Assembly (NCBI GenBank): GCA_011523635.1
Contig: WTGI01000077.1
Coordinates: forward strand, 1,006 to 65,005
Direction of reading: 5' to 3'
Length of the DNA stretch: 64,000 nt
Source of the DNA: Acidimicrobiia bacterium
Lineage (GTDB): Bacteria > Actinomycetota > Acidimicrobiia > Spongiisociales > Spongiisociaceae
Shown: in pieces, positions 1,499-13,432 of the stretch
How positions within the stretch are numbered: position 1 is the stretch's first letter
How the letters are laid out: each line of letters starts with the position of its first letter
Made by a program: the position numbers and the translations under genes
Notes under the pieces: generated by a model
What the model was told of the DNA's origin: nothing
Database searches by the model: none
What the model saw: the letters and a program-made list of their open reading frames with translations, nothing else

Positions 1499-1527
1499 TT
1501 GACATTGTTTAGCTAATAAGCTAAACT
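1499..1527 (+). promoter_or_regulatory. sigma70-like promoter TTGACA-N17-TAAACT with palindromic TTAGCTAA (1509-1516) in the spacer; upstream of the XRE regulator
   Basis: Read directly: ttgaca(1499-1504), 17 nt, taaact(1522-1527). GAGGAGGGG RBS at 1552-1560 before ATG 1567. Extra 17-nt palindrome gtctggctaagccagag at 1535-1551. Confidence 0.45.
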
Positions 1528-1566
1528 ACCGAAAAGTCTGGCTAAGCCAGAGAGGAGGGGCAGGTT

Positions 1567-1923
1567 ATGGCAGAGCGATTCGGAGATATCCTCAGAAGGA
1601 CCCGGCAACAGGCCAAGAGGACCCTGGGTGATGTCGCGAGGCTGTTGGACGTCTCCGTGGTCTATGTATCGGACGTGGAACGCGGCAACCGCAGGCCCTT
1701 CAGCAACGAGCGTATTCTCAAAATCGCGAGGTTTCTGAAGGCTGATCCAGTACCGCTAATTGCCGCGGCGGATGTCGACAAGGGTGTCATCGAGTACAAG
1801 ATATCCAAGACAAAGCCTCTGGAGGCCAGGGTTGTCGGAGACCTTGTCAGCGGTCTGGCCCGTGGCGGAGTCACGGAAGACCAGTTGGAGAGGATCAGAA
1901 CCATCCTGAAGGACTCCGAGTAG
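1567..1923 (+). CDS. XRE-family HTH transcriptional repressor (CapH-like)
   Basis: HTH_XRE signature LGDVARLLDVSVVYVSDVERGNRRP. 118 aa. Directly followed (11 nt) by the ImmA/IrrE peptidase gene. Confidence 0.75.
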   Translation: MAERFGDILRRTRQQAKRTLGDVARLLDVSVVYVSDVERGNRRPFSNERILKIARFLKADPVPLIAAADVDKGVIEYKISKTKPLEARVVGDLVSGLARGGVTEDQLERIRTILKDSE

Positions 1924-1933
1924 GCGCCCAACG

Positions 1934-2569
1934 ATGTGGCGGGGACTAGTGGGAGCGCGTGCGGACCGCGGTTACAGCTACCGGAATCTGGAGAGGATGG
2001 CCGCCCATGTTCGCGGCCTGCTCGGCTACTCTCCGACCGAGGCGATCGATACGCTGCATCTTTTCGACGGCCTCGACATCGCGGTGGTGGATGAGACCGG
2101 CCGGGACATCCCGATACGCGGCGCCGTGATCGAACTCAACGGCTCCGAAGGGTATGCGAAGTACGACAGCAACCGCTGCGTCATCGAAATCCTGGCGTCG
2201 CCCGCTACCTACGACTGGTTGGAGAAGGGTCACCCGCGCGGCGGTTTCTTCGTTGCCCACGAGTTGGGCCACTGCCTGCTACATACCGACCAACTCGTGC
2301 GCCTGGCCCAGATGCCCAAGGCGGAGCAGGCCGCCCACCACCGAAGTGGGGAGGAGGTCGGGCACGAAGCCTACGAGGACACCGAGTGGCAGGCTAACGC
2401 CTTCGCCAGCGCCCTGCTGATGCCCGCCCAGGGACTCCAGATCCTCGGGCAGGAACACGGTGAACTCTCACCGGACATCATCGTCGAGCACTTTCACGTC
2501 TCTGCCGAAGCTGCGCGCTACCGGCTCCAACTGTACAACGACAGGAAGACGGAGTTGCTCCAGCGCTAG
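1934..2569 (+). CDS. ImmA/IrrE-family zinc metallopeptidase (DUF955, CapP-like)
   Basis: HEXXH motif in FFVAHELGHCLLH, plus conserved downstream E...ANAFASALLMP typical of ImmA/IrrE. Confidence 0.75.
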   Translation: MWRGLVGARADRGYSYRNLERMAAHVRGLLGYSPTEAIDTLHLFDGLDIAVVDETGRDIPIRGAVIELNGSEGYAKYDSNRCVIEILASPATYDWLEKGHPRGGFFVAHELGHCLLHTDQLVRLAQMPKAEQAAHHRSGEEVGHEAYEDTEWQANAFASALLMPAQGLQILGQEHGELSPDIIVEHFHVSAEAARYRLQLYNDRKTELLQR

Positions 2570-2883
2570 CCTCCAGGACGGCCATGAGACCCGCCCCACC
2601 TGCCGCCATCCCAGTCCGAGCCAGCGGGGTGTCACCGTTCCATGGCGTGACGTTACGACGTGACCTAGGCTCCGGAAGAGTTGCATCTGCTTCGACCGGC
2701 TCTTCGTCCCGCGGGACTACGGGGCGGAGGGAACACCTCGCACCGGTCGGCTAACGCCCCTTCCCCTCTCTGTCCCGTCCTCTCGTTGTCACTGAGGTCG
2801 TCCCGGAACCCTCGAAAGCGCGGCGGGTCGACCGACGCGCCATGCGGGAGGAATTGGTTTCAGGGGATACTCCGCGCAGGTCC

Positions 2884-2912
2884 TTGACAGTGTTAAGCGC
2901 ATTAGCTAACTT
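2884..2912 (+). promoter_or_regulatory. sigma70-like promoter TTGACA-N17-TAACTT with the same TTAGCTAA palindrome (2902-2909); upstream of the Ubl operon
   Basis: ttgaca(2884-2889), 17 nt, taactt(2907-2912). GCTAACT direct repeat. Hairpin cccctcggctgagggg at 2923-2938. AAGGAGG RBS before ATG 2988. Confidence 0.45.
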
Positions 2913-2987
2913 GCTAACTAACTCCCCTCGGCTGAGGGGTCGTCGGACCGAAAACAAGACCCCCGTTTCAGCGAAGGAGGCTGAATC

Positions 2988-3269
2988 ATGGTACCAGACA
3001 ACAAGCCGCAGACCATTGACGTGGAGGACCACAAGACGGTCACCATCGTCGTGGAAGGCATCCCCCACCAGTGGCCCGAGGAGTACATCACCTATGCGCA
3101 GGTGGTCACCCTCGAAGTGCCTGACTACGCCCAGCACCCGGAGATCACCTACACGGTGATCTACAAGGGAGGCCCCCGCAACAAGCCCGAAGGCACCCTC
3201 TCCAAGGGTGGCACCGTCAAGGTCGTCGAAGGAATGGTCTTCAATGTTTCAGAAACTGGCCAGTCATAA
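2988..3269 (+). CDS. multiubiquitin-domain (beta-grasp Ubl) protein
   Basis: 93 aa. ...ITYTVIYKGGPRNKPEGTLSKGGTVKVVEGMVFNVSETGQS resembles the multiubiquitin family seen in prokaryotic E1/E2 operons. Confidence 0.6.
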   Translation: MVPDNKPQTIDVEDHKTVTIVVEGIPHQWPEEYITYAQVVTLEVPDYAQHPEITYTVIYKGGPRNKPEGTLSKGGTVKVVEGMVFNVSETGQS

Positions 3270-4437
3270 TCACGACCTCCGGCGTCTGCTCGAAAAGGGC
3301 TATGCGATAGCCGTCGATAGCAATCACCTCGTCGTCCGCGACATTCCGTATCTGGACGGCGAGGGTGGCCTGCAGACGGGCGCCATCGTCGCCAAGCTGG
3401 AGTTCATCGACCAGGAGCGAGTCACCCCGACGGACCACCAAGTGTACTTCGCCGGGTCGGTACCCCACGGGTTGGGCGGAAGTCCGATCCCGAACCTGGG
3501 CGGAGGACCCACGACCATCGCCCTGAGCGAGGCCTGTAGCGATGTGGTGGTCCAGCGGTCATTCTCCAACAAGCCCAGAGCCACGGGGAAGTTCGAGGAC
3601 TTCTTCCACAAGATCGAGAGCTACGTCGCAATCATTTCAGGGCCGGCGATGGAAGCCCACAGGGCCACCCCCTACACGTTCCGGTCCGTGGACGAGGCCC
3701 CGACCGATTCGGTGTTTAAGTTCCACGACACCCTGACCACCCGGGCGGAGATCTCGGACCTGGCCGCGAAGTTCAAGGACGATGTGGTCGCCATCATTGG
3801 CCTGGGCGGTACAGGCTCGTACCTCCTGGACTTCCTGGCAAAGACGCCCGTCCGGGAGATTCGGGCGTTCGACCTGGACCCCTACCACGTACACAACGCC
3901 TTCCGGTCCCCCGGCCGGCTGGGGAAAAGTGAGTTGGGGAAGTCAAAGGCGGAGGTTTACGGCGGCCGCTACGAGAACTTCCGCACGGGCCTGTCTGTGA
4001 CCCCCGTGTTCATCGACGCGTCCTGCCGCGACGAGGTGGACGGGGTCACCTTCGCATTCGTCTGTGTCGATAAGGGTCCGTCCAGAGCGGGCATCTTCGA
4101 CCTGCTCATCTCCATGGGCATCCCCTTCATCGACGTGGGTATGGGACTGAACCGGAAGAGGGGCCCCATCAGCGGCCTGCTGCGCACCACCTACTACTCG
4201 GCGGAGCACGGGCAAGAGGTCAGGGAGAGAGACCTGGCCCCGCTAACCGATGACCCGGATGACATCTACCGGACGAACATCCAGATCAGCGAACTGAACG
4301 CCCTCAACGCATGTCTGGCGGTCGTCAGGTTCAAGCAACTCAGGGGCTTCTACTTCGAGGACGTTCCCTACCACCACCTGGTCATGGACATAGGCGACCT
4401 CAGGATGGTCGGCGAGTGTGACCTTGGCGAAGATTAG
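3244..4437 (+). CDS. E1-like ThiF/MoeB adenylyltransferase fused to an N-terminal ~190-aa domain (possibly E2-like)
   Basis: Rossmann nucleotide-binding motif VVAIIGLGGTGSYLLDFL and ThiF-like FVCVDKGPSRAGIFDLLISMGIPFIDVGMG. ATG 3244 overlaps the Mub stop by 26 nt; the ORF could also start at GTG 3208. Confidence 0.65.
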   Translation: MFQKLASHNHDLRRLLEKGYAIAVDSNHLVVRDIPYLDGEGGLQTGAIVAKLEFIDQERVTPTDHQVYFAGSVPHGLGGSPIPNLGGGPTTIALSEACSDVVVQRSFSNKPRATGKFEDFFHKIESYVAIISGPAMEAHRATPYTFRSVDEAPTDSVFKFHDTLTTRAEISDLAAKFKDDVVAIIGLGGTGSYLLDFLAKTPVREIRAFDLDPYHVHNAFRSPGRLGKSELGKSKAEVYGGRYENFRTGLSVTPVFIDASCRDEVDGVTFAFVCVDKGPSRAGIFDLLISMGIPFIDVGMGLNRKRGPISGLLRTTYYSAEHGQEVRERDLAPLTDDPDDIYRTNIQISELNALNACLAVVRFKQLRGFYFEDVPYHHLVMDIGDLRMVGECDLGED

Positions 4438-5099: not shown

Positions 5100-8000
5100 T
5101 CAGGTAGCGGCTAGGTCACGGATTTGTTGGACGATCCTGAAGAACTCGTCGAGGTCGGGCTTGGCGAAGATGGTTTCGGGGCCCTCGGGCGCGACGCTGG
5201 TGAATGGGGACTCGTAGATACGGCCGGGTTGGATGGTGCCGTGTTCGGTGAGGTAGTCGATGACCAGGCTGACGAAGTTGATTTGGTTGACGCTGTAGCG
5301 CTTGTCGTTGAGGAATCTGGCAAACACCCGTTTGGCGGCGGTGCGGTCGAGGCCGACAAGGGAGCGGACGAAGAGTCCGAAGCTGCCGGCACGCATGGTG
5401 GCTTCGGCGAAGGTGTCCGTATCGCCGATGCCAGCCGCGACAAGCACCCGCTGAAGGTCCTGCATGTCGGCTGCTGTGATCGGATGACCGTTGCGGACCT
5501 TGGCGACGATGTCATTGGCGAAGTGGTCTTTGAGGAATCGCTCGGCCTTTTTCTTGAATTGCTCGAAGTCGTGGCTACCAACGCTTCCGCCGATGCCTGG
5601 GAGTTCGATCTCGGTGCCTTCGCCCATCGAGTCTGTGAAATCCGAGTACAGGGGCGTCTTGTGGACGGTTTCGACAAGCTGGACAAGGTTCCGTAGGCGC
5701 TTGCGGGCATCTTCGAGCATGGGATACGTGACGTCGATCCACCACTCGTCGGTTTGGATGTCGATGATCAGTTCTAGCTGCGTGGCGACGGCGGGGATTG
5801 CCGTTCCAAGGTCTTCGAGCGCTGATGCCATGTTGATGATGCGCTTACGTTGTCGCTCGAACGGTTCGTGGCGAAGCAGGCCTAGCTGAGCATTGAGCAT
5901 GAGGACGTCGAAGCGCTTGGCCTCCTCGTTGTCGGGGTCGAGTTGATCGGGGAGCTTCGCAATCCGGTTGTTGAGATCTGCCAGGTCTTGCAGGGTGAGC
6001 GTGTCCCATGCCTCTTGGGTACGGAACCGCTCGACCAGTTCGAGATGGGGACGCACGAGAAAGTTGTACTCGTTCATCGATGCCACAGTCTCACGCAGCG
6101 TGGTGGCGATGTCGGATCGATCGTCGGCGAGAGCCTCGATGCCATCCAGGGCTTGCAGGAGTTCGACGCGGGCAGTGAACAGGATCTCGCTCAGCGGGGC
6201 CGCGCTCTTTGGATCTGCCACAGGGAGCGGCTGGCTGAAGTACTCAAGGTTGCTGCAGAAGTCGAACACGTTGAATGATGTCTTGTCGTCGCCTGGGCCG
6301 AACAGGTCCTTGCAGAGGCGGGTACCACGGCCGAGCATCTGCCAGAACTTGGTCTTGGACCTGACCATCTTGAAGAAGACAAGGTTGACGACCTCGGGTA
6401 CGTCGATGCCGGTATCGAGCATGTCAACGCTGATCGCGATGTGTGGTGCCTTGTCTCTGTTGGAGAAGTCGTCGATCAGGCTCTGTGCGTAGTTGACCTG
6501 GTGGGTGATCACCCGGGCGAAGTTGCCAGCGTCGAGCGCCGGGTAGTTGATGTCGAAACGTTCCTTGATGTAGTCGGCGTGGCGCTGGTTCTTGGCGAAG
6601 ATAATTGTCTTCCCCAGCCGGTCACCACCTGCCACCGTCACGCCTTCGGTCATGAGGTATTTCAGAACCTGGTCGACGGTGTCCTCGTTGAATAGCCACT
6701 TGTTGAGCTCGGCGGCGTTGACCTCATCTGGCGGCTCGATCGGGATGCCGTCATCATCCACGCCCCACTCGAGCTCGTCCCACTCGGCTTTCTCGTCTTC
6801 GGACAGGTCGCCGTAGCGGATGCCCTCGCGCACGAACTTCAGCGGTACCGATACTCCTCGGGGTGGGACAAGGTACCCGTCCCGGATCGCATCATCGAGC
6901 GAGTAGGCGTCGGTTGGTACTCCTGTCTCCAGATCAAACAGGTCATAGGTGTTCTTGTCGACCTCGTCCTTAGGGGTGGCAGTCAGTCCCACCAACAGCG
7001 AGTCGAAGTAGTCGAAGATGCCCCGGTACTTTCGATATACCGACCGGTGCGCTTCGTCGATCACCACCAGATCGAAATGCCCGACACCGAACCGGCGGGT
7101 GCCGTCAGACCGGTACTCATCGATCTTGCCGACCATCGTCTGGTACGTAGACACGTACACCCGTCCGTCTTCGGCGCCTTCACTGACCAGGTTCACGGGC
7201 GCCGAGTCCGGCAAGTGGGTCTTGAACGCGTTGACCGCCTGATTCACCAACGCAGTGCGATCCGCCAAGAACAGCACACGCTTCACCCAACCAGCCCGCA
7301 TCAACAGATCCACAAGGGCAATCACAGTGCGGGTCTTACCAGCGCCTGTGGCCATCACCACCAGTGCCTTACGCTGCTTGTCAACCTCGAAGTGCTCGGC
7401 AACCGCCTGGATCGCTCGCTGTTGATAGTGGCGGTCTACGATCCCCTCGCTGACATCCAAAGATGACAGTGACAACTGGCTATTCCGTCGCTGGATCAGC
7501 AGCGCCAACTCGTCGGCCGTGCAGTAGCCCTGCACCCTTCGAGCCGGATACCTCGTGTCGTCCCACAGCCAATGCTCATACCCGTTGCTGTAGAAAACGA
7601 CCGGGCGCTGTCCCGTCTCAGCCTCTAGGCAATTCGCGTACAGTTTGGCTTGCTGTTGGCCAGCCTGAGGGGCGACCGAAGTCTTCTTCGCCTCCACCAC
7701 GGCCAATGGCAACCCATCGTCGCCCCACAGCACATAGTCGACGTAGCCAACCCCCGAGACCGAAGGCATCCCCCGTACCTCGTATTCGATCTCGCATCCG
7801 TCATCAGGGTCGGCCCAGCCCGCCTCGCCTAGCAGAGCGTCTATCTTGTACCGGCGCGTTTCTGCCTCGGACCAGTCGTGCGCCCCGATCGGAATGGACT
7901 CGGCTGCCTTCTTCGCCGCCGCTACCTCAGCCCTCAACTCCCCTAACTGTGCAGCGAGCCCTTCGGCCGTTTGGTGAGGCTCCGCCAACCCATGACGGGC

Positions 8001-8510
8001 CCGCAAGCCGTTCGCGACATCCCGTCCCAGACGTTCCTCAAGATCTTGACGGGCCTTCAGTGAAGGCTTCGCTTGCCCGCCATCGCCTCGGAGAAGGCCC
8101 GGGTCGAAATGCGCCAGAGGATCGGGTTTTGTTGATCGGCCATAGGTGAAGGCCAACCACAGACAGAACTGGAACAACGCAGACACCACCTCCACAGCGT
8201 CCAGCCTCGACGGCGGCCTCGCCTTCTGCACCGCACGATCACCCGCGCGCTGAATCTTCCGAGCCCAACCGAAGACCCGACCACCGGCTAACGCCTTGAA
8301 TGCAGGTTCATTGATGCAGGCATCCAGATGATCCTCATACGGATCCGGAAGCCCACGGTCATACCGGTACATCCACCTGACACCCGACTCCAAACACTTC
8401 CTCGCATAGACCACCGCCGAGCCTGGATCCGACAACACGAGACGCTCTGCCCAACACGCCAGCCCAAACTCGACCGAGAAGTCCTCTTCGAGGAACGAGA
8501 ACTGGCTCAC
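5100..8510 (-). CDS. hsdR: Type I restriction enzyme R subunit
   Basis: SF2 helicase motifs VVMATGAGKT and DEAH-box (VVIDEAHRS). 1136 aa. 4-nt overlap with hsdS. Confidence 0.9.
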   Translation of the reverse strand: MSQFSFLEEDFSVEFGLACWAERLVLSDPGSAVVYARKCLESGVRWMYRYDRGLPDPYEDHLDACINEPAFKALAGGRVFGWARKIQRAGDRAVQKARPPSRLDAVEVVSALFQFCLWLAFTYGRSTKPDPLAHFDPGLLRGDGGQAKPSLKARQDLEERLGRDVANGLRARHGLAEPHQTAEGLAAQLGELRAEVAAAKKAAESIPIGAHDWSEAETRRYKIDALLGEAGWADPDDGCEIEYEVRGMPSVSGVGYVDYVLWGDDGLPLAVVEAKKTSVAPQAGQQQAKLYANCLEAETGQRPVVFYSNGYEHWLWDDTRYPARRVQGYCTADELALLIQRRNSQLSLSSLDVSEGIVDRHYQQRAIQAVAEHFEVDKQRKALVVMATGAGKTRTVIALVDLLMRAGWVKRVLFLADRTALVNQAVNAFKTHLPDSAPVNLVSEGAEDGRVYVSTYQTMVGKIDEYRSDGTRRFGVGHFDLVVIDEAHRSVYRKYRGIFDYFDSLLVGLTATPKDEVDKNTYDLFDLETGVPTDAYSLDDAIRDGYLVPPRGVSVPLKFVREGIRYGDLSEDEKAEWDELEWGVDDDGIPIEPPDEVNAAELNKWLFNEDTVDQVLKYLMTEGVTVAGGDRLGKTIIFAKNQRHADYIKERFDINYPALDAGNFARVITHQVNYAQSLIDDFSNRDKAPHIAISVDMLDTGIDVPEVVNLVFFKMVRSKTKFWQMLGRGTRLCKDLFGPGDDKTSFNVFDFCSNLEYFSQPLPVADPKSAAPLSEILFTARVELLQALDGIEALADDRSDIATTLRETVASMNEYNFLVRPHLELVERFRTQEAWDTLTLQDLADLNNRIAKLPDQLDPDNEEAKRFDVLMLNAQLGLLRHEPFERQRKRIINMASALEDLGTAIPAVATQLELIIDIQTDEWWIDVTYPMLEDARKRLRNLVQLVETVHKTPLYSDFTDSMGEGTEIELPGIGGSVGSHDFEQFKKKAERFLKDHFANDIVAKVRNGHPITAADMQDLQRVLVAAGIGDTDTFAEATMRAGSFGLFVRSLVGLDRTAAKRVFARFLNDKRYSVNQINFVSLVIDYLTEHGTIQPGRIYESPFTSVAPEGPETIFAKPDLDEFFRIVQQIRDLAAT

Positions 8511-9667
8511 AACTCACCCTGGAACGCACGCTGCTGTAGCGAAGCGAACAGCCTGTCGCATCGCCGGGATGAGCGATTGAGGACATCTCGCTGCCGCGCG
8601 ATCATCCTCAAGTAAGACTCGAACTGTCGCTGAAGCTTGAGCGCAGGAATCGGGATCTTGATTTCCTTGAGGATTGCTTGGTTAATCTTGTGTGTCCCGT
8701 TGGTAGTTCGCGCAGCACTCTCGATCTGACGACGAACGATTGGCGTATTCCAGACTCGACTAAGAAAGTCTCGCGAAATCAACTCAGAATCACACCGAGC
8801 AGCGATCATCGTATCAGGAAAGGCGACATCGGGGAGACTTTGTTGTGGATACTTCCCTCGCCCAACCAGAAACAGATTTCCGTTGCCACGACAAATGAGA
8901 AACAGGTCTGCTGAAACTGTCTGCTGCACGACATGAGGCCTAACAAAAGTGCTGTTCTTGACTGCATCTGGATCAAAGGACAAACCAGTAATGGCTGAAA
9001 GGGTTAGTACTCGTCCTGGGAATTCACCTGACGTTGATGGTGACACTCCATTACGCAGTGGTTTCGTCATTAATGTCTCAAACCTTACTTGTCTAAGCGT
9101 CGTTAGATTATCGAACAGGTCGGCAAACACGGCTTCGACGAATCTGTCGAGCTTGGCGAGGGCCTGGCGGCGCTTCGCTCGAAGCGCCTCAGCCGCGTCT
9201 AACACCGCTGCGATACGCCGCTGCTCCTCTAACGCCGGCAAGGAGATAGGAATGTCGGCGACGTACGATGGCCTGGCGCGAAGCAATGATCCTCCGACCC
9301 CTGCGACGGTCTGGATAAAGGCATGATGAAATCGATCGGACACCAGTACATAGCGCAAGTACGCAGGATCGAAGCGATCACTCCGGAAGATGATCCATTC
9401 GCTCGACCCGATGGCCGGCCGATCAGAGCCCAGCTCTACAACCCATGCGCGTCGAATGTGCGGGACAATCTTTGAGAGGAGGACGTCACCGCTCTCAAGC
9501 ACCTGTTTACGGGAGCCGACTTCCCTGCCACTAACGAGCTCGGGCACCTTGGCATCGAATGCTGGGATGCTGAAGAGTTCGAACTCATCATCGGGATTCT
9601 TGCGTGGATCGATGGAACGCGTTCTTGTTGACATCAGTTCACCAAGCGGTACGCTTGCGAAAGTCAT
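8507..9667 (-). CDS. hsdS: Type I RM specificity subunit with two target recognition domains
   Basis: Duplicated TRD architecture with conserved spacer helices (LPALEEQRRIAAVLD ... IPIPALKLQRQFESYL). Overlaps hsdM and hsdR by 4 nt each. Confidence 0.8.
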   Translation of the reverse strand: MTFASVPLGELMSTRTRSIDPRKNPDDEFELFSIPAFDAKVPELVSGREVGSRKQVLESGDVLLSKIVPHIRRAWVVELGSDRPAIGSSEWIIFRSDRFDPAYLRYVLVSDRFHHAFIQTVAGVGGSLLRARPSYVADIPISLPALEEQRRIAAVLDAAEALRAKRRQALAKLDRFVEAVFADLFDNLTTLRQVRFETLMTKPLRNGVSPSTSGEFPGRVLTLSAITGLSFDPDAVKNSTFVRPHVVQQTVSADLFLICRGNGNLFLVGRGKYPQQSLPDVAFPDTMIAARCDSELISRDFLSRVWNTPIVRRQIESAARTTNGTHKINQAILKEIKIPIPALKLQRQFESYLRMIARQRDVLNRSSRRCDRLFASLQQRAFQGEL

Positions 9668-11232
9668 GCCAACATTGCCTTAAGTTCGTCGACGCCTCTT
9701 AGGATTTCTGTCTCCAGGGCTGTGAGTTCGTCGAGGATCTGGGTTGGCGGTGGGTATTCGATTTCGTTGTAGATGATTTCTTTGTAGCGGTTGATGCTGA
9801 GGTCGTAGGCGTTGCTCACGATGTCGGACTTGGGTATGCAGAAGGACTGCTCGGTGCGGACACGTGACATCTCCGTAGTGGTGCGTTTCTGCCAGCGGGC
9901 GAGAACGTCGGGTAGGTTGTTCTTCTCATGCTCTTCATCGGTCAGCTCCCCCTCCGTGAGTACGCCGAGTTTGGCCTCGTCAAGTAGCGGGATGCGCTTG
10001 TCGTCGAGGCTGTAGCCGTCAGCCTCCAAGTCATAAAACCAGACATGGTCGGTGCCGCCAGAGTTGGTCTTGGTGAACAGCAGGATGGCGGTAGAGACCC
10101 CGGCGTAGGGTTTGAACACGCCGGATGGGAGCGAGACGATGCCCTCGAGCTTCTGGTCTTCAACCAGAATACGGCGAAGCTCTTTGTGAGCCTTGGTCGA
10201 GCCGAAGAGTATCCCATCGGGCACAATCACCGCCGCTCTTCCACCGGGTTTGAGGAGTCGCAAGAACAGTGTGAGAAACAGCAGTTCGGTCTTCTTGGTC
10301 TTGACGACCTTCAGGAGGTCCTTCGCTGTGCTCTCGTAGTCGAGCGAGCCTGCGAAGGGCGGGTTGGCCAGGATCAGGCTGTAGGACTCCGTGCCTCCGG
10401 CGTGGTCCTGGGCTAGGGAGTCCCGGTAGCTGATGTTGGGGTTCTGGACTCCGTGGAGCTGCATGTTCATCGACCCGATCCGGAGCATCGTGTTGTCGAA
10501 GTCATAGCCGGTGAACATCGTGCTGTGGAAATGTCGTGCCTTGACTGGGTCGGTCAACGCGATCGGATGTCGGTCACGGATGTGTTCGCCAGCCGCTACT
10601 AGGAACCCGCACGTCCCGCTTGCGGGATCGCAGATAGTGTCGTCTGGTTGGGGGGCGACCATTTCGACCATCAGCCGGATGATGTGGCGCGGGGTACGGA
10701 ACTGGCCGTTTTGCCCGGCTCTGGCGATCTTGGAGAGCATGTACTCGTAGACGTCACCCTTTGTGTCGCGGTCTGTCATCGGGATCGAGTCGAGACCGTC
10801 CACTGCCTTCTGCAGCAGCCCAGGGGTGGGGATCGTGAGACGGGCACCGCGCATGTGTTTGGCGTGAGTGCTCTCCTCCGCCCGCTGGTGCAGGAACGGG
10901 AAGACGTATCTCTCGACTACCTCGAACATGTCGGCCGCGGACATGTGCTTGAACCTCGACCAGCGAAGGTCACTGTACGGTCGGCCGTTGATGAGCCCTT
11001 CAGGCAGGAATTGTTGGCCCTTAGGGAAGATGACCACATCGATCGGCTGGCCGGTTCGGTTCGCTTTGTTCTCGGCGAGTGTCTGGCGTTCGTCGAGGGC
11101 CTTGATGAACAGCAGATAGGTGAGTTGCTCTATCACCTCGAGCGGGTTGGATATGCCACCCGACCAGAAGCTGTGCCAGACAGCGTCGATCTTGTTTCTG
11201 ACCTCACCGGTGAGCATTGGTTCCCACTTCAT
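9664..11232 (-). CDS. hsdM: Type I RM N6-adenine DNA methyltransferase
   Basis: HsdM N-terminal domain, motif I (DPASGTCGFL) and motif IV (NPPF in LILANPPFAGS). Confidence 0.9.
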   Translation of the reverse strand: MKWEPMLTGEVRNKIDAVWHSFWSGGISNPLEVIEQLTYLLFIKALDERQTLAENKANRTGQPIDVVIFPKGQQFLPEGLINGRPYSDLRWSRFKHMSAADMFEVVERYVFPFLHQRAEESTHAKHMRGARLTIPTPGLLQKAVDGLDSIPMTDRDTKGDVYEYMLSKIARAGQNGQFRTPRHIIRLMVEMVAPQPDDTICDPASGTCGFLVAAGEHIRDRHPIALTDPVKARHFHSTMFTGYDFDNTMLRIGSMNMQLHGVQNPNISYRDSLAQDHAGGTESYSLILANPPFAGSLDYESTAKDLLKVVKTKKTELLFLTLFLRLLKPGGRAAVIVPDGILFGSTKAHKELRRILVEDQKLEGIVSLPSGVFKPYAGVSTAILLFTKTNSGGTDHVWFYDLEADGYSLDDKRIPLLDEAKLGVLTEGELTDEEHEKNNLPDVLARWQKRTTTEMSRVRTEQSFCIPKSDIVSNAYDLSINRYKEIIYNEIEYPPPTQILDELTALETEILRGVDELKAMLA

Positions 11233-13432
11233 TCTCCGTTTCGATCATCGCGTTCCTCAAACTGAGGATGCCGGCCACGAGGCCTTCGCGGACCGTATCG
11301 TAGGTGGTGCGGCAAGCTTCGAGTGTCTCGTCGAATTGGGACATCTGCGTCTCGATAGCGGTCAGACAGGCGACGAGGGCTTTCTGTTCTTCGAGGGCTG
11401 GCAGGTGAACTTCGATGTCTTTGAGCGTGTCATGCCTTAGGTTGGCGATGACACTTCCTGTGGCAGCTCCTGCGAGGGCTGCTCTCCCCCGCCTGGATGT
11501 CAGATACAGCCTCAGGTAGTCAGGATCCAAGCGTCTCTGGTCAGGTCGGAGTCTGATCAGCCAGTTCGAGAACGATGCAGGAACATCGAATCTGACTATG
11601 GCGCACGCTACAGATCTGTGGCCATCGATCCCACGCGTCACAAGTAGGAGATCCCCTCGTCGGACCATCCGACCTCGAACATGGCCGAACGTGGACTCAG
11701 CAGGAACGTTGGCCAGGATCGGCTGTCCCTGGATAACCATTCCGGTTGTGACGTACGGCGTCGGATCGCCTTCGCCGCCTTCACGTTGCCGTATGCCAGG
11801 CAACGGATCAGTGATCAACAAGTCACCCAGGCGGTGATGCGAGAAACTTGGGCCATCCACCGGGTCGATTGCCGAGAGTTGCTGCCGGATCGTAGCCTCA
11901 ACTGTCGGGAGAGCCGCCAGACGCTCCTTGACGGTCGTTGTGAGACGTTTCTGCCGGGACCGGATCGGCTCACCGTTGATCTCCGTGATCTTCACCGCGT
12001 ACTGGATGTAGCGACTAGGGCCCAGTGCGCTGCCGTTTGCAACAATCTCGTCGGTGGTGCCGATGCCGCTGAACTGAGCTTCGGGTTCCAGCCGTCCGTC
12101 ACGCCACCGCTGTATCGTCCGTCCGATCTTGACTATCTCGGGTGGCTGGAAGCTACGCACTCCCCCTCTCTCGGGCGTTCCGAGTTGACGAGCATCGAGA
12201 AACAGAACCCTCCCGGCACGATTCACTCGGTCCTTCTGCAGAACCAAGATCGCAGTGGGTATAGACACCGACGTGAGCATCCCCGGCGGGAGGTAGAGGA
12301 CAGCATCCACGTAGTCGGCCTCTAACAGTCCCGTCCGGATTATGACCTCGGAGCGGCCACGTCTCGTCAAAGCGGTGGTCGGGAGCACAACAACTCCGAT
12401 ACCGGAGTCGGCGAGGTGGAACACAACGTGCTGAACCCAAGCAAGGTCAGCGTGCCCCTTCGGAGGTAACCCTAAGAACCACCGGGGATCACCGTCCATC
12501 TGCTCGACCGAGGCGAGACGGAGACCGAACGGAGGTTCGACAGCGATGCGGTCGGCTCTCAACTGCCAGAGACGATCATCGACCATCGTGTCACCGGTCA
12601 CGAGCTGGAAGGACGCGCCCTGCAACAGCAGGTGGAGGAACCCGAGCCTCCAGGTCTGCTCCCTGATCTCTTGACCATAGAGTTGGGTCACCGTATCCGA
12701 ATAGCGTTCCCATGTCGATCCCAGGAAGACAGCTCTGCCACAAGCTGGGTCGTAGACAGTTCCCTCAAGAGGTTCGAGCAAGGCTGTCATGATGTCGACA
12801 AGGCTTGGCCCACTATCGACGTTGCCCGCCTTAGCCCCACGACGCTTGGCGAAGTCTTCGAGGAGGACTGTTGAGGCATCCCCCCAGTCGGTTGAGCGGG
12901 GGTGGAAGTGACCAACAGTTTCGATCAGTCGAGTCCAGTCTGAAGGCCGCAACTGGCTCACAACAGACGACACCCTCAGCGCCCTAGCGAGGTCGGGGTC
13001 CGACATGGTCAGAGCGTCGGCGGTCGAGGAATACACCAGTCCGGGGTCGTTTGCTGCTTCGATCCGGCCCCAGGCACGTGCGAGCGGAGTCAGACGCTCG
13101 TATCGACCGGAAGCTGCCGCGCGCAGGGCGAATAGTTGCAGCAGGACCTCCGGAGTGTCGAACACACCGGGGAGATCGCGCACTGCATACGTAGCCTGTA
13201 ACACCGCACTCTCGATCGAGTCCTGTTCTGGAAGGTGGACACTCTTGCCCGCGGCTCGAAGCCACGCCACGATCTGAGCCCGGTCGAAGAGTCCTTCCTC
13301 AGCTTCTGTCGGGAAGTCCGGGTGGCGACGCTTCCAGTTCGACACCGCAGACGGTCTAACCCCAGCGAGTCTTGCGATCTCGGCACCTGTGATCAGGATC
13401 GGAGTTGATGGGTTTGTATCTGGGACCGTCAT
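11204..13432 (-). CDS. HTH + gamma-class N6-adenine MTase + TRD fusion protein (second, non-canonical M/S polypeptide)
   Basis: N-terminal HTH (ILITGAEIARLAGVRPSAVSNWKRRHPDFP). Motif I (YDPACGRAVFLG) and motif IV (VEPPFG). C-terminal HsdS-like TRD with LPALEEQKALV helix. First gene body of the operon after the NYN gene. Confidence 0.75.
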   Translation of the reverse strand: MTVPDTNPSTPILITGAEIARLAGVRPSAVSNWKRRHPDFPTEAEEGLFDRAQIVAWLRAAGKSVHLPEQDSIESAVLQATYAVRDLPGVFDTPEVLLQLFALRAAASGRYERLTPLARAWGRIEAANDPGLVYSSTADALTMSDPDLARALRVSSVVSQLRPSDWTRLIETVGHFHPRSTDWGDASTVLLEDFAKRRGAKAGNVDSGPSLVDIMTALLEPLEGTVYDPACGRAVFLGSTWERYSDTVTQLYGQEIREQTWRLGFLHLLLQGASFQLVTGDTMVDDRLWQLRADRIAVEPPFGLRLASVEQMDGDPRWFLGLPPKGHADLAWVQHVVFHLADSGIGVVVLPTTALTRRGRSEVIIRTGLLEADYVDAVLYLPPGMLTSVSIPTAILVLQKDRVNRAGRVLFLDARQLGTPERGGVRSFQPPEIVKIGRTIQRWRDGRLEPEAQFSGIGTTDEIVANGSALGPSRYIQYAVKITEINGEPIRSRQKRLTTTVKERLAALPTVEATIRQQLSAIDPVDGPSFSHHRLGDLLITDPLPGIRQREGGEGDPTPYVTTGMVIQGQPILANVPAESTFGHVRGRMVRRGDLLLVTRGIDGHRSVACAIVRFDVPASFSNWLIRLRPDQRRLDPDYLRLYLTSRRGRAALAGAATGSVIANLRHDTLKDIEVHLPALEEQKALVACLTAIETQMSQFDETLEACRTTYDTVREGLVAGILSLRNAMIETENEVGTNAHR

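Follow-up and report, generated by a model that had tools for sequence, protein, structure and literature searches.

A promoter-operator cassette shared by a repressor-peptidase gene pair and a Type II Bub operon suggests a common switch

We analyzed a stretch of 64,000 nt from the genome of an Acidimicrobiia bacterium (contig WTGI01000077.1), the whole of which is called the window below. It contains a gene for an XRE-family repressor, a gene for an M78-family peptidase and, downstream of these, the ubiquitin-like conjugation operon bubA-bubBD-bubE. We found that one type of cassette, a promoter with a 16-bp inverted repeat over its spacer and -10 hexamer, precedes both the repressor gene and the bub operon. 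In 18 loci from several phyla, the XRE gene and the cargo operon are each preceded by this cassette. We consider it quite probable that the repressor and the peptidase form a switch of the ImmR/ImmA, DdrO/IrrE or CapH/CapP kind, and that this switch governs the Type II Bub operon. The features concerned are listed here by their positions in the window.

1499 to 1504, plus strand: -35 hexamer of promoter P1, TTGACA
1509 to 1524: operator O1, TTAGCT-AATA-AGCTAA, with zero mismatches to the family consensus and its centre about 17.5 nt 5' of the predicted start
1522 to 1527, plus strand: -10 hexamer of P1, TAAACT, overlapping the right operator arm
1567 to 1923, plus strand: gene for an XRE-family (CapH-like) repressor of 118 amino acids (Pfam HTH_31, 2.7e-12)
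1934 to 2569, plus strand: gene for an M78 (ImmA/IrrE-type) zinc peptidase of 211 amino acids (Pfam Peptidase_M78, 4.9e-12)
2884 to 2889, plus strand: -35 hexamer of promoter P2, TTGACA, seen in the sequence and in the logos
2894 to 2909: operator O2, TAAGCG-CATT-AGCTAA, in the register of O1; its 2 mismatches are confined to the -35-proximal arm
2902 to 2917: overlapping second register, TTAGCT-AACT-TGCTAA, with 1 mismatch, made possible by a third half-site (GCTAA) located 8 bp downstream
2907 to 2912, plus strand: -10 hexamer of P2, TAACTT, matching TATAAT at 3/6 positions, its final T being the same in all 18 P2 sites
2988 to 3269, plus strand: bubA, ubiquitin-like protein of 93 amino acids (Pfam Multi_ubiq, 2.6e-14)
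3244 to 4437, plus strand: bubBD, E2-like domain (Pfam DUF6791, 3.7e-43) fused to E1 (Pfam ThiF, 9.9e-11), 397 amino acids
4418 to 4828, plus strand: bubE, DUF6527 protein of 136 amino acids (Pfam, 3.6e-22)

The window was compared with 17 genome loci of about 10 kb each and 13 metagenome loci, all with XRE relatives, so that the window and the 30 related loci together made up 275 kb. The genome loci come from metagenome-assembled genomes (MAGs) of Actinomycetes, Dehalococcoidia, other Chloroflexota, Caldilineaceae, Gemmatimonadaceae, Acidobacteriota and Polyangiaceae. Sequence logos were built from 20 P1 sites and 18 P2 sites. The background for the operator count in the 275 kb was determined from 20 dinucleotide shuffles.

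Both promoters have a sigma-70-type architecture (-35 and -10 hexamers with a spacer of 16-18 nt), and this architecture is kept in 18-20 loci. An initial annotation of the window had described a perfect -35 hexamer, a 17-nt spacer and a -10-like hexamer before the repressor gene and before the operon, and all of these are present at the coordinates listed above, with 17 nt between the hexamers at both P1 and P2. It had also called the two modules near-identical. This goes too far, as the modules share 23/32 positions in register between the -35 and the end of the -10. Direct repeats of GCTAA(C), which it mentioned as well, were found at 1512-1516, 1520-1524, 2905-2910 and 2913-2918. Both modules are local AT-rich dips: the GC content is 0.45-0.47 around 1451-1600 and 0.53-0.55 around 2851-3000, and most of the surrounding sequence is at 0.58-0.70. 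A generic promoter scan scored P1 at 10/12, the one module that it reported. P2 has a promoter match of 9/12 and is under the -10 threshold of the tool. The related loci mostly have TAAACT at the P2 -10 position, compared to TAACTT in the window. Transcription is predicted to start at about 1534 (P1) and 2920 (P2). From the arrangement of genes and promoters we infer that P1 drives the repressor-peptidase bicistron and that P2 drives bubA-bubBD-bubE, the two promoters being co-directional.

The element conserved between the promoters is the inverted repeat TTAGCT-N4-AGCTAA. Allowing up to 2 mismatches, there are three such repeats in the window (0.27 expected), all of them in the two modules. 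The direct repeat GCTAA-N3-GCTAA (up to 1 mismatch) occurs five times compared to 0.52 expected, and four of the five copies are inside the modules. Over the window and the related loci, 39 inverted repeats with at most 1 mismatch were counted, and there were none in any of the shuffles. The upstream regions have one block in common, TTGAC(a)-N4-TTAGCT-N4-AGCTAA-A(c)T, in which the right arm of the repeat supplies the -10 hexamer (AGCTAAACT) from its last three bases and three more. Most of the 20 P1 sites have TTGAC(a) at a distance of 4 nt 5' of the repeat, and AGCTAA-AcT is conserved at the -10 end. In the logos, the right arm AGCTAA is conserved at P1 and at P2 with the first base alone varying, the left arm TTAGCT is near-invariant at P1, and the sequence flanking the cassette carries no information in distant loci.

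This conserved unit is different from the one originally proposed. The initial annotation had taken the self-complementary octamer TTAGCTAA as the regulatory site and placed it at 1509-1516 and 2902-2909. The sequence bears out both positions, and two copies in 64 kb exceed the 0.07 expected (0 of 100 shuffles reached two). The octamers are 8 bp out of register with each other, though, at +10 from the -35 hexamer in the left arm at P1 and at +18 in the right arm at P2. Several loci do not have TTAGCTAA at P1, and L003, L005, L006, L007 and L015 have TTAGCTT.. or TTAGCTG... We therefore rejected the octamer as the operator in favor of the 16-bp repeat. A literature search for TTAGCTAA returned primers and unrelated matches only.

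The repeats at P2 are generally poorer than those at P1. Of the 18 loci that also have P2, 13 carry a perfect repeat at P1. The P2 operator was the poorer of the two in 10 loci and the better in 1 (sign test, p = 0.012), and its mismatches are mostly in the -35-proximal arm, as in the window. In 7 of the 18 P2 sites there is an additional GCTAA half-site, the third, which is 8 bp downstream and out of helical phase.

In the genome loci (up to 2 mismatches), the repeat occurs at only two places per locus. The first is 5' of the XRE ATG, at a distance of about 58 nt in most loci. The second is about 1.1-1.6 kb downstream, just past the peptidase gene and straight after TTGACA. The metagenome loci agree, save for one extra weak site with 2 mismatches in each of L025 and L026. 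Several loci have rearranged or different cargo. In L013, a Bub-like operon is on the minus strand (7909-9945) and begins with a reversed cassette, at a distance of 4.9 kb from the XRE gene. L015 also has a reversed cassette, here in front of a 72-amino-acid open reading frame (ORF) and a DUF2188 gene (6024-6580, minus strand). In L003/L016 (6324-8553) and L009 (6195-9145), the cassette precedes ThiF-containing operons other than Type II Bub, one of which carries DUF7665. In L020 and L021, a gene for a small DUF2188 protein is inserted before bubA, downstream of P2. Judging from these sequences, the cassette tracks the cargo and not a position. The XRE and M78 genes are together in every locus long enough to show both. 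The other neighbors in the window, the DUF433, DUF5615 and restriction-modification (R-M) genes, were never conserved with the pair.

A variant subfamily (L018, L019, L023 and L025; 65-69% identity) has TTAACC-N4-AGCTAA upstream of the XRE gene. In these loci the variant site is followed by GCTTAA and, farther downstream, by a -10-like TATAAT (or TATACT/TAAACT), so that the operator is at or upstream of the -35 hexamer and not over the -10. Co-variation between the recognition helix and the operator was uninformative, as the helix-turn-helix (HTH) sequence (VSVVYVSDVERGNR) is invariant even in loci with the left arm TTAACC.

The repressor belongs to a well-conserved family. Besides HTH_31, the 118-amino-acid protein matches Pfam HTH_3 (7.6e-10) and, weakly, the PADLOC capH model (1.3e-4, 20.9 bits), with residues 1-116 aligned. 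There were 380 homologues, and the 120 among the matches listed were 74-93% identical to it. In 16 of the 17 genome loci the XRE protein is 69-91% identical to that of the window, and in L017 (Polyangiaceae) it is 48% identical. In all loci compared it is better conserved than the peptidase, and it usually exceeds the cargo as well. This degree of conservation implies, as far as can be judged from sequence, that the switch has been transferred horizontally across phyla. A search for the protein in phage, plasmid and IMG/VR collections found nothing. The AlphaFold2 (AF2) model has two C-terminal helices (residues 84-98 and 104-116), and its mean predicted local distance difference test score (pLDDT) is only 51, which is too poor for use, and we set the model aside. 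By sequence, the C-terminal region matched zero natural proteins in the PDB.

The peptidase gene begins 10 nt past the XRE stop codon. Its product matches the PADLOC capP model (6.4e-15) over the core only (profile positions 62-156 of 242). The motif H109-E110-x-x-H113 and residue E151, the downstream Glu ligand expected of such enzymes, are invariant in 33 homologues; E151 is within an invariant DTEWQANAF. All 120 homologues among the matches listed are 196-227 amino acids long and have the M78 domain only. In the AF2 model (pLDDT 81), there is a beta-sheet subdomain at the N terminus, and residues 100 to 211 are helical throughout. The fold best matches PprI/IrrE and CapP, with template modelling scores of only about 0.4. 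The length of 211 amino acids, the domain search and the model agree that there is no C-terminal GAF domain. We also looked for a cysteine-switch loop between HEXXH and the Glu ligand, which is stated to be absent from some CapP proteins. The only cysteine nearby is C114, next to H113, the loop at 115-150 is without cysteine, and residues 139-148 are disordered in the model. Within its family, the protein is therefore a short enzyme of the ImmA-like type.

The cargo is a Type II Bub (6E.2) operon. Its gene set matches the published definition (BubA, BubBD and BubE, without a JAB peptidase), and no JAB peptidase ORF was found between 2988 and 5100. The mechanically called ORF for bubBD begins at GTG 3208. 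The homologues begin with MFQ, and we therefore place the start at ATG 3244, giving a 26-nt overlap with bubA. One related cargo operon appears to be damaged: at about 6660-7850 in L005, bubBD is apparently broken by transposase-like ORFs, with 86 amino acids of BubBD aligning before ORFs of the insertion sequence type. The cargo of this locus has perhaps lost its function, whereas its regulator and the two operators are intact.

The arrangement suggests the following mechanism. A dimer of the XRE protein would bind the repeat, for example TTAGCTAATAAGCTAA. The half-site centres are 10 bp apart, and therefore both are on one face of the helix. The operator is centred at about -17.5, a place typical of repressor sites. 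A bound dimer would cover about -25 to -10 and exclude RNA polymerase from both promoters, and the outcome would be negative autoregulation and repression of the cargo together. A stress signal, possibly DNA damage or phage infection, would activate the zinc peptidase, which would cut the C-terminal oligomerisation region of the repressor, and both promoters would then open. The third half-site in some P2 regions might provide an alternative binding register over -17 to -2. The initial annotation had proposed that the XRE protein autoregulates and also represses the ubiquitin-like operon, with the ImmA/IrrE-type peptidase relieving both. This model gains support from the presence of the same cassette before both in 18 loci, from the inversion of the cassette with inverted cargo and from the co-occurrence of the gene pair. 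It also fits what has been published on CapH+CapP, both on how they act and on their occurrence with Bub operons. That the peptidase would cleave the repressor is reasonably expected by homology.

Similar switches are known. CapH represses an adjacent operon and is cleaved by CapP, a peptidase activated by single-stranded DNA (ssDNA) (Lau et al. 2022). CapH+CapP govern operons of the cyclic-oligonucleotide-based antiphage signaling system (CBASS) and other defence operons (Lau et al. 2022; Calloji et al. 2026), and 168 of 544 Bub operons (31%) carry the pair. Bub operons are not known to protect against phage or to serve any other defined biological role. The pair in the window resembles CapH+CapP in several respects: the XRE-type HTH repressor has a C-terminal region, the M78 gene is immediately downstream, a defence or stress operon directly follows the pair (in this case Bub, a published partner), and both the capH and capP models of PADLOC match it. 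It differs in that the peptidase is 211 amino acids long and GAF-less with no cysteine in the switch loop, and in that the genes are co-directional with the cargo and there are two promoters, each with an operator. In CapP and IrrE, which are about 280-290 amino acids long, the groove for ssDNA is flanked by the peptidase domain and the C-terminal GAF domain; in CapP a central HTH also contributes to it. Because the peptidase of the window has no GAF domain, the ssDNA trigger of CapP cannot be assumed for it.

ImmR/ImmA and DdrO/IrrE are relatives of the CapH/CapP pair. ImmR is expected to act on its own promoter as well as on that of the silenced genes. In ICEBs1 and related immunity modules of phages and integrative elements, as in the window, an XRE repressor is beside a short GAF-less COG2856/M78 peptidase. 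The pair in the window differs in that its cargo is a ubiquitin-like conjugation operon with no mobile-element genes controlled, and in having no close sequence relative in the phage, plasmid and IMG/VR collections. Among solved structures, DdrO/IrrE is closest (a weak sequence match of the HTH to 6rnz, with 8sln and 3dti as the top fold matches for the peptidase). Its radiation/desiccation response motif (RDRM) is also a palindrome with TTA...TAA outer bases near the -35 and -10, and its repressor is likewise cleaved in the dimerisation domain. However, the core and spacing of the RDRM are different (for instance TTATGC-N5-ACATAA, 17 bp, Deinococcus), IrrE has an HTH and a GAF domain, and DdrO has a dispersed regulon compared to two local sites in 64 kb here. 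CapK + CapS (EMBO J 2026) has repressor palindromes over its own promoter and the Bub promoter, with the regulators upstream and co-directional, as in the window. The proteins are unrelated (a STAS domain-winged HTH protein and a GHKL kinase), and the repressor is turned off by phosphorylation and not by proteolysis. The two-site logic in the window is closer to the CapS demonstration than to the CapH site. Overall, the cis-layout is that expected for a known class of switch, and the association of CapH+CapP with Bub operons is already published.

Several observations weigh against a switch of this kind acting at both promoters. The -10 hexamer of P2 is weak, with half of its positions differing from TATAAT, and the generic promoter scan made no P2 call. 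O2 is weaker than O1, which is counter-intuitive for tight repression of the cargo. No terminator was recognised ahead of P2, and transcripts from P1 could therefore run on into bub and add to its expression independent of O2. The lack of a GAF domain means that the published activation mechanism is not transferable to this peptidase, and the poor AF2 model of the XRE protein leaves the dimerisation domain as a prediction. The 22-bp site of E. coli CapH is upstream of the -35 hexamer in a divergent region, and the site here is between -35 and -10. The operators and promoters are established by sequence and comparison, and binding, cleavage and the start sites are inferred.

We considered three other explanations for the paired repeats. 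The repeat could be read by something other than the XRE protein, for instance a global regulator of the host or a dedicated sigma factor, with the targets of the XRE protein being elsewhere. Binding of the XRE protein to the repeat is a prediction from sequence, some capH/capP loci also encode a sigma-70-family factor (Lau et al. 2022), and part of the conservation of an AT-rich motif that overlaps a core promoter could be due to promoter function. However, the motif goes with the XRE+M78 pair in MAGs of at least four phyla while all other neighbors change. Its dyad symmetry and 10-bp half-site spacing suit an HTH dimer and not a sigma factor, its left arm TTAGCT is near-invariant at P1 despite being part of the spacer, which sigma-70 does not contact in a base-specific manner, and there is no sigma gene in the locus. 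We regard another reader of the repeat as very improbable. The similarity of the upstream regions might also reflect recent shared ancestry or transfer of the whole island, without operator function. L001, L004, L008, L010 and L011 can indeed be aligned over all of the intergenic sequence, with the 314 nt that separate the peptidase gene from P2 included, and an XRE protein that is 69-91% identical across phyla suggests recent transfer. But in distant loci, including L003 and L009 with cargo other than Type II Bub, the surroundings have diverged and TTGACA-N4-TTAGCT-N4-AGCTAA alone is kept, in two places per locus, whichever the orientation. Together with the 39 sites that have no counterpart in the shuffles, this makes ancestry without function extremely unlikely.

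Alternatively, the XRE protein could be an R-M controller (C) protein, which activates at low dose and represses at high dose and would make the locus a delay timer instead of a stress switch. The 'Control_protein' models of PADLOC match it about as well as capH does (1e-4 vs 1.3e-4), P2 has overlapping registers and a third half-site, and a type I R-M system adjoins. Against this, the operator is centred at about -17.5 over the spacer and the -10, and activating C-boxes abut or overlap the -35. The XRE gene is always coupled to a peptidase gene, which C-protein systems do not have, and R-M genes are never co-conserved with the XRE+M78 pair. A controller protein is thus highly unlikely. A repressor-peptidase switch is the reading that we prefer. 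A broader version of it, which we put forward as doubtful, is that this is a portable, plug-and-play switch moving across phyla. It would have been joined again and again to different ubiquitin-like/E1 operons and to DUF2188 genes, may sense a signal other than ssDNA, as it has no GAF groove, and may use a purposely weaker operator with three half-sites so that the cargo fires ahead of the repressor gene.

The particulars of this locus that are useful are the exact operator, the tandem layout of two promoters and the GAF-less peptidase. The operator and promoters give a handle for inducing a Bub operon from an uncultured lineage and for testing which signal opens it. Bub-associated 'CapH+CapP' pairs include GAF-less ImmA-like peptidases, to which the ssDNA-groove mechanism as described is inapplicable.

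The regions between the promoters and the genes contain additional features.

1537 to 1551, plus strand: hairpin TCTGGC-TAA-GCCAGA, perfect over 6 bp, near the 5' end of the capH-like mRNA (z-score in the window, -0.49)
2570 to 2883, plus strand: non-coding GC-rich spacer of 314 nt, from the peptidase stop codon to P2
2924 to 2939, plus strand: hairpin CCCCTC-GGCT-GAGGGG, perfect over 6 bp, near the 5' end of the bub mRNA (z-score in the window, -0.43)

Both hairpins had been reported in the initial annotation, at 1535-1551 and 2923-2938; they are present, with those coordinates off by 1-2 nt. We folded the P1 leaders of 19 loci and the P2 leaders of 16 and calculated z-scores relative to shuffles. 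In the window, neither hairpin is by itself more stable than its shuffles. The P1 leaders had a mean z of -0.25, with a similar hairpin predicted only in L010 and an unrelated one in L007. We rejected the P1 hairpin as a conserved element on the basis of this mean, and it is probably lineage-specific and minor. Most of the P2 leaders are predicted to form a start-proximal hairpin from unrelated sequences (mean z of -1.24), which is consistent with a 5'-end stabiliser.

Close loci have a homologous 314-nt spacer. It is without an Rfam match, a recognisable terminator, excess structure (fold z of +1.7) or an evident conserved ORF. The idea that it is what is left of a GAF domain, or that it contains a gene or specifies an RNA, found no support, as the peptidase is about 210 amino acids long family-wide and the Rfam search was negative.

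Upstream of bubA, TTCAGC-GAAGGAG-GCTGAA at 2967-2985 puts the bubA Shine-Dalgarno sequence in the loop of a hairpin. A hairpin sequestering the Shine-Dalgarno sequence is not supported, as it is found in close relatives only and L010 and L011 have uncompensated changes. Nearly every Type II Bub locus examined has the sequence TTyAGCnAAGGAGG ahead of bubA. The version in L002 and L005 is TTTAGCTAAGGAG, which resembles an operator half-site.

The repressor-peptidase pair and the bub operon are flanked by the following genes.

273 to 905: DUF433 gene (Pfam), overlapping the DUF5615 gene
859 to 1419: DUF5615/PIN-like gene (Pfam), overlapping the DUF433 gene
5100 to 8510, minus strand: HsdR, type I R-M
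8507 to 9667, minus strand: HsdS, type I R-M
9664 to 11232, minus strand: HsdM, type I R-M
11204 to 13432, minus strand: fusion of an N6-methylase and a specificity domain, 742 amino acids, following the type I R-M genes

The DUF433 and DUF5615 genes directly upstream resemble a toxin-antitoxin pair and are not beside the XRE gene in any related locus. No integrase or excisionase adjoining the cargo was found in the ORF listing of the window. The type I R-M system adjoins the bub operon, and the Bub locus is therefore in a defence island.

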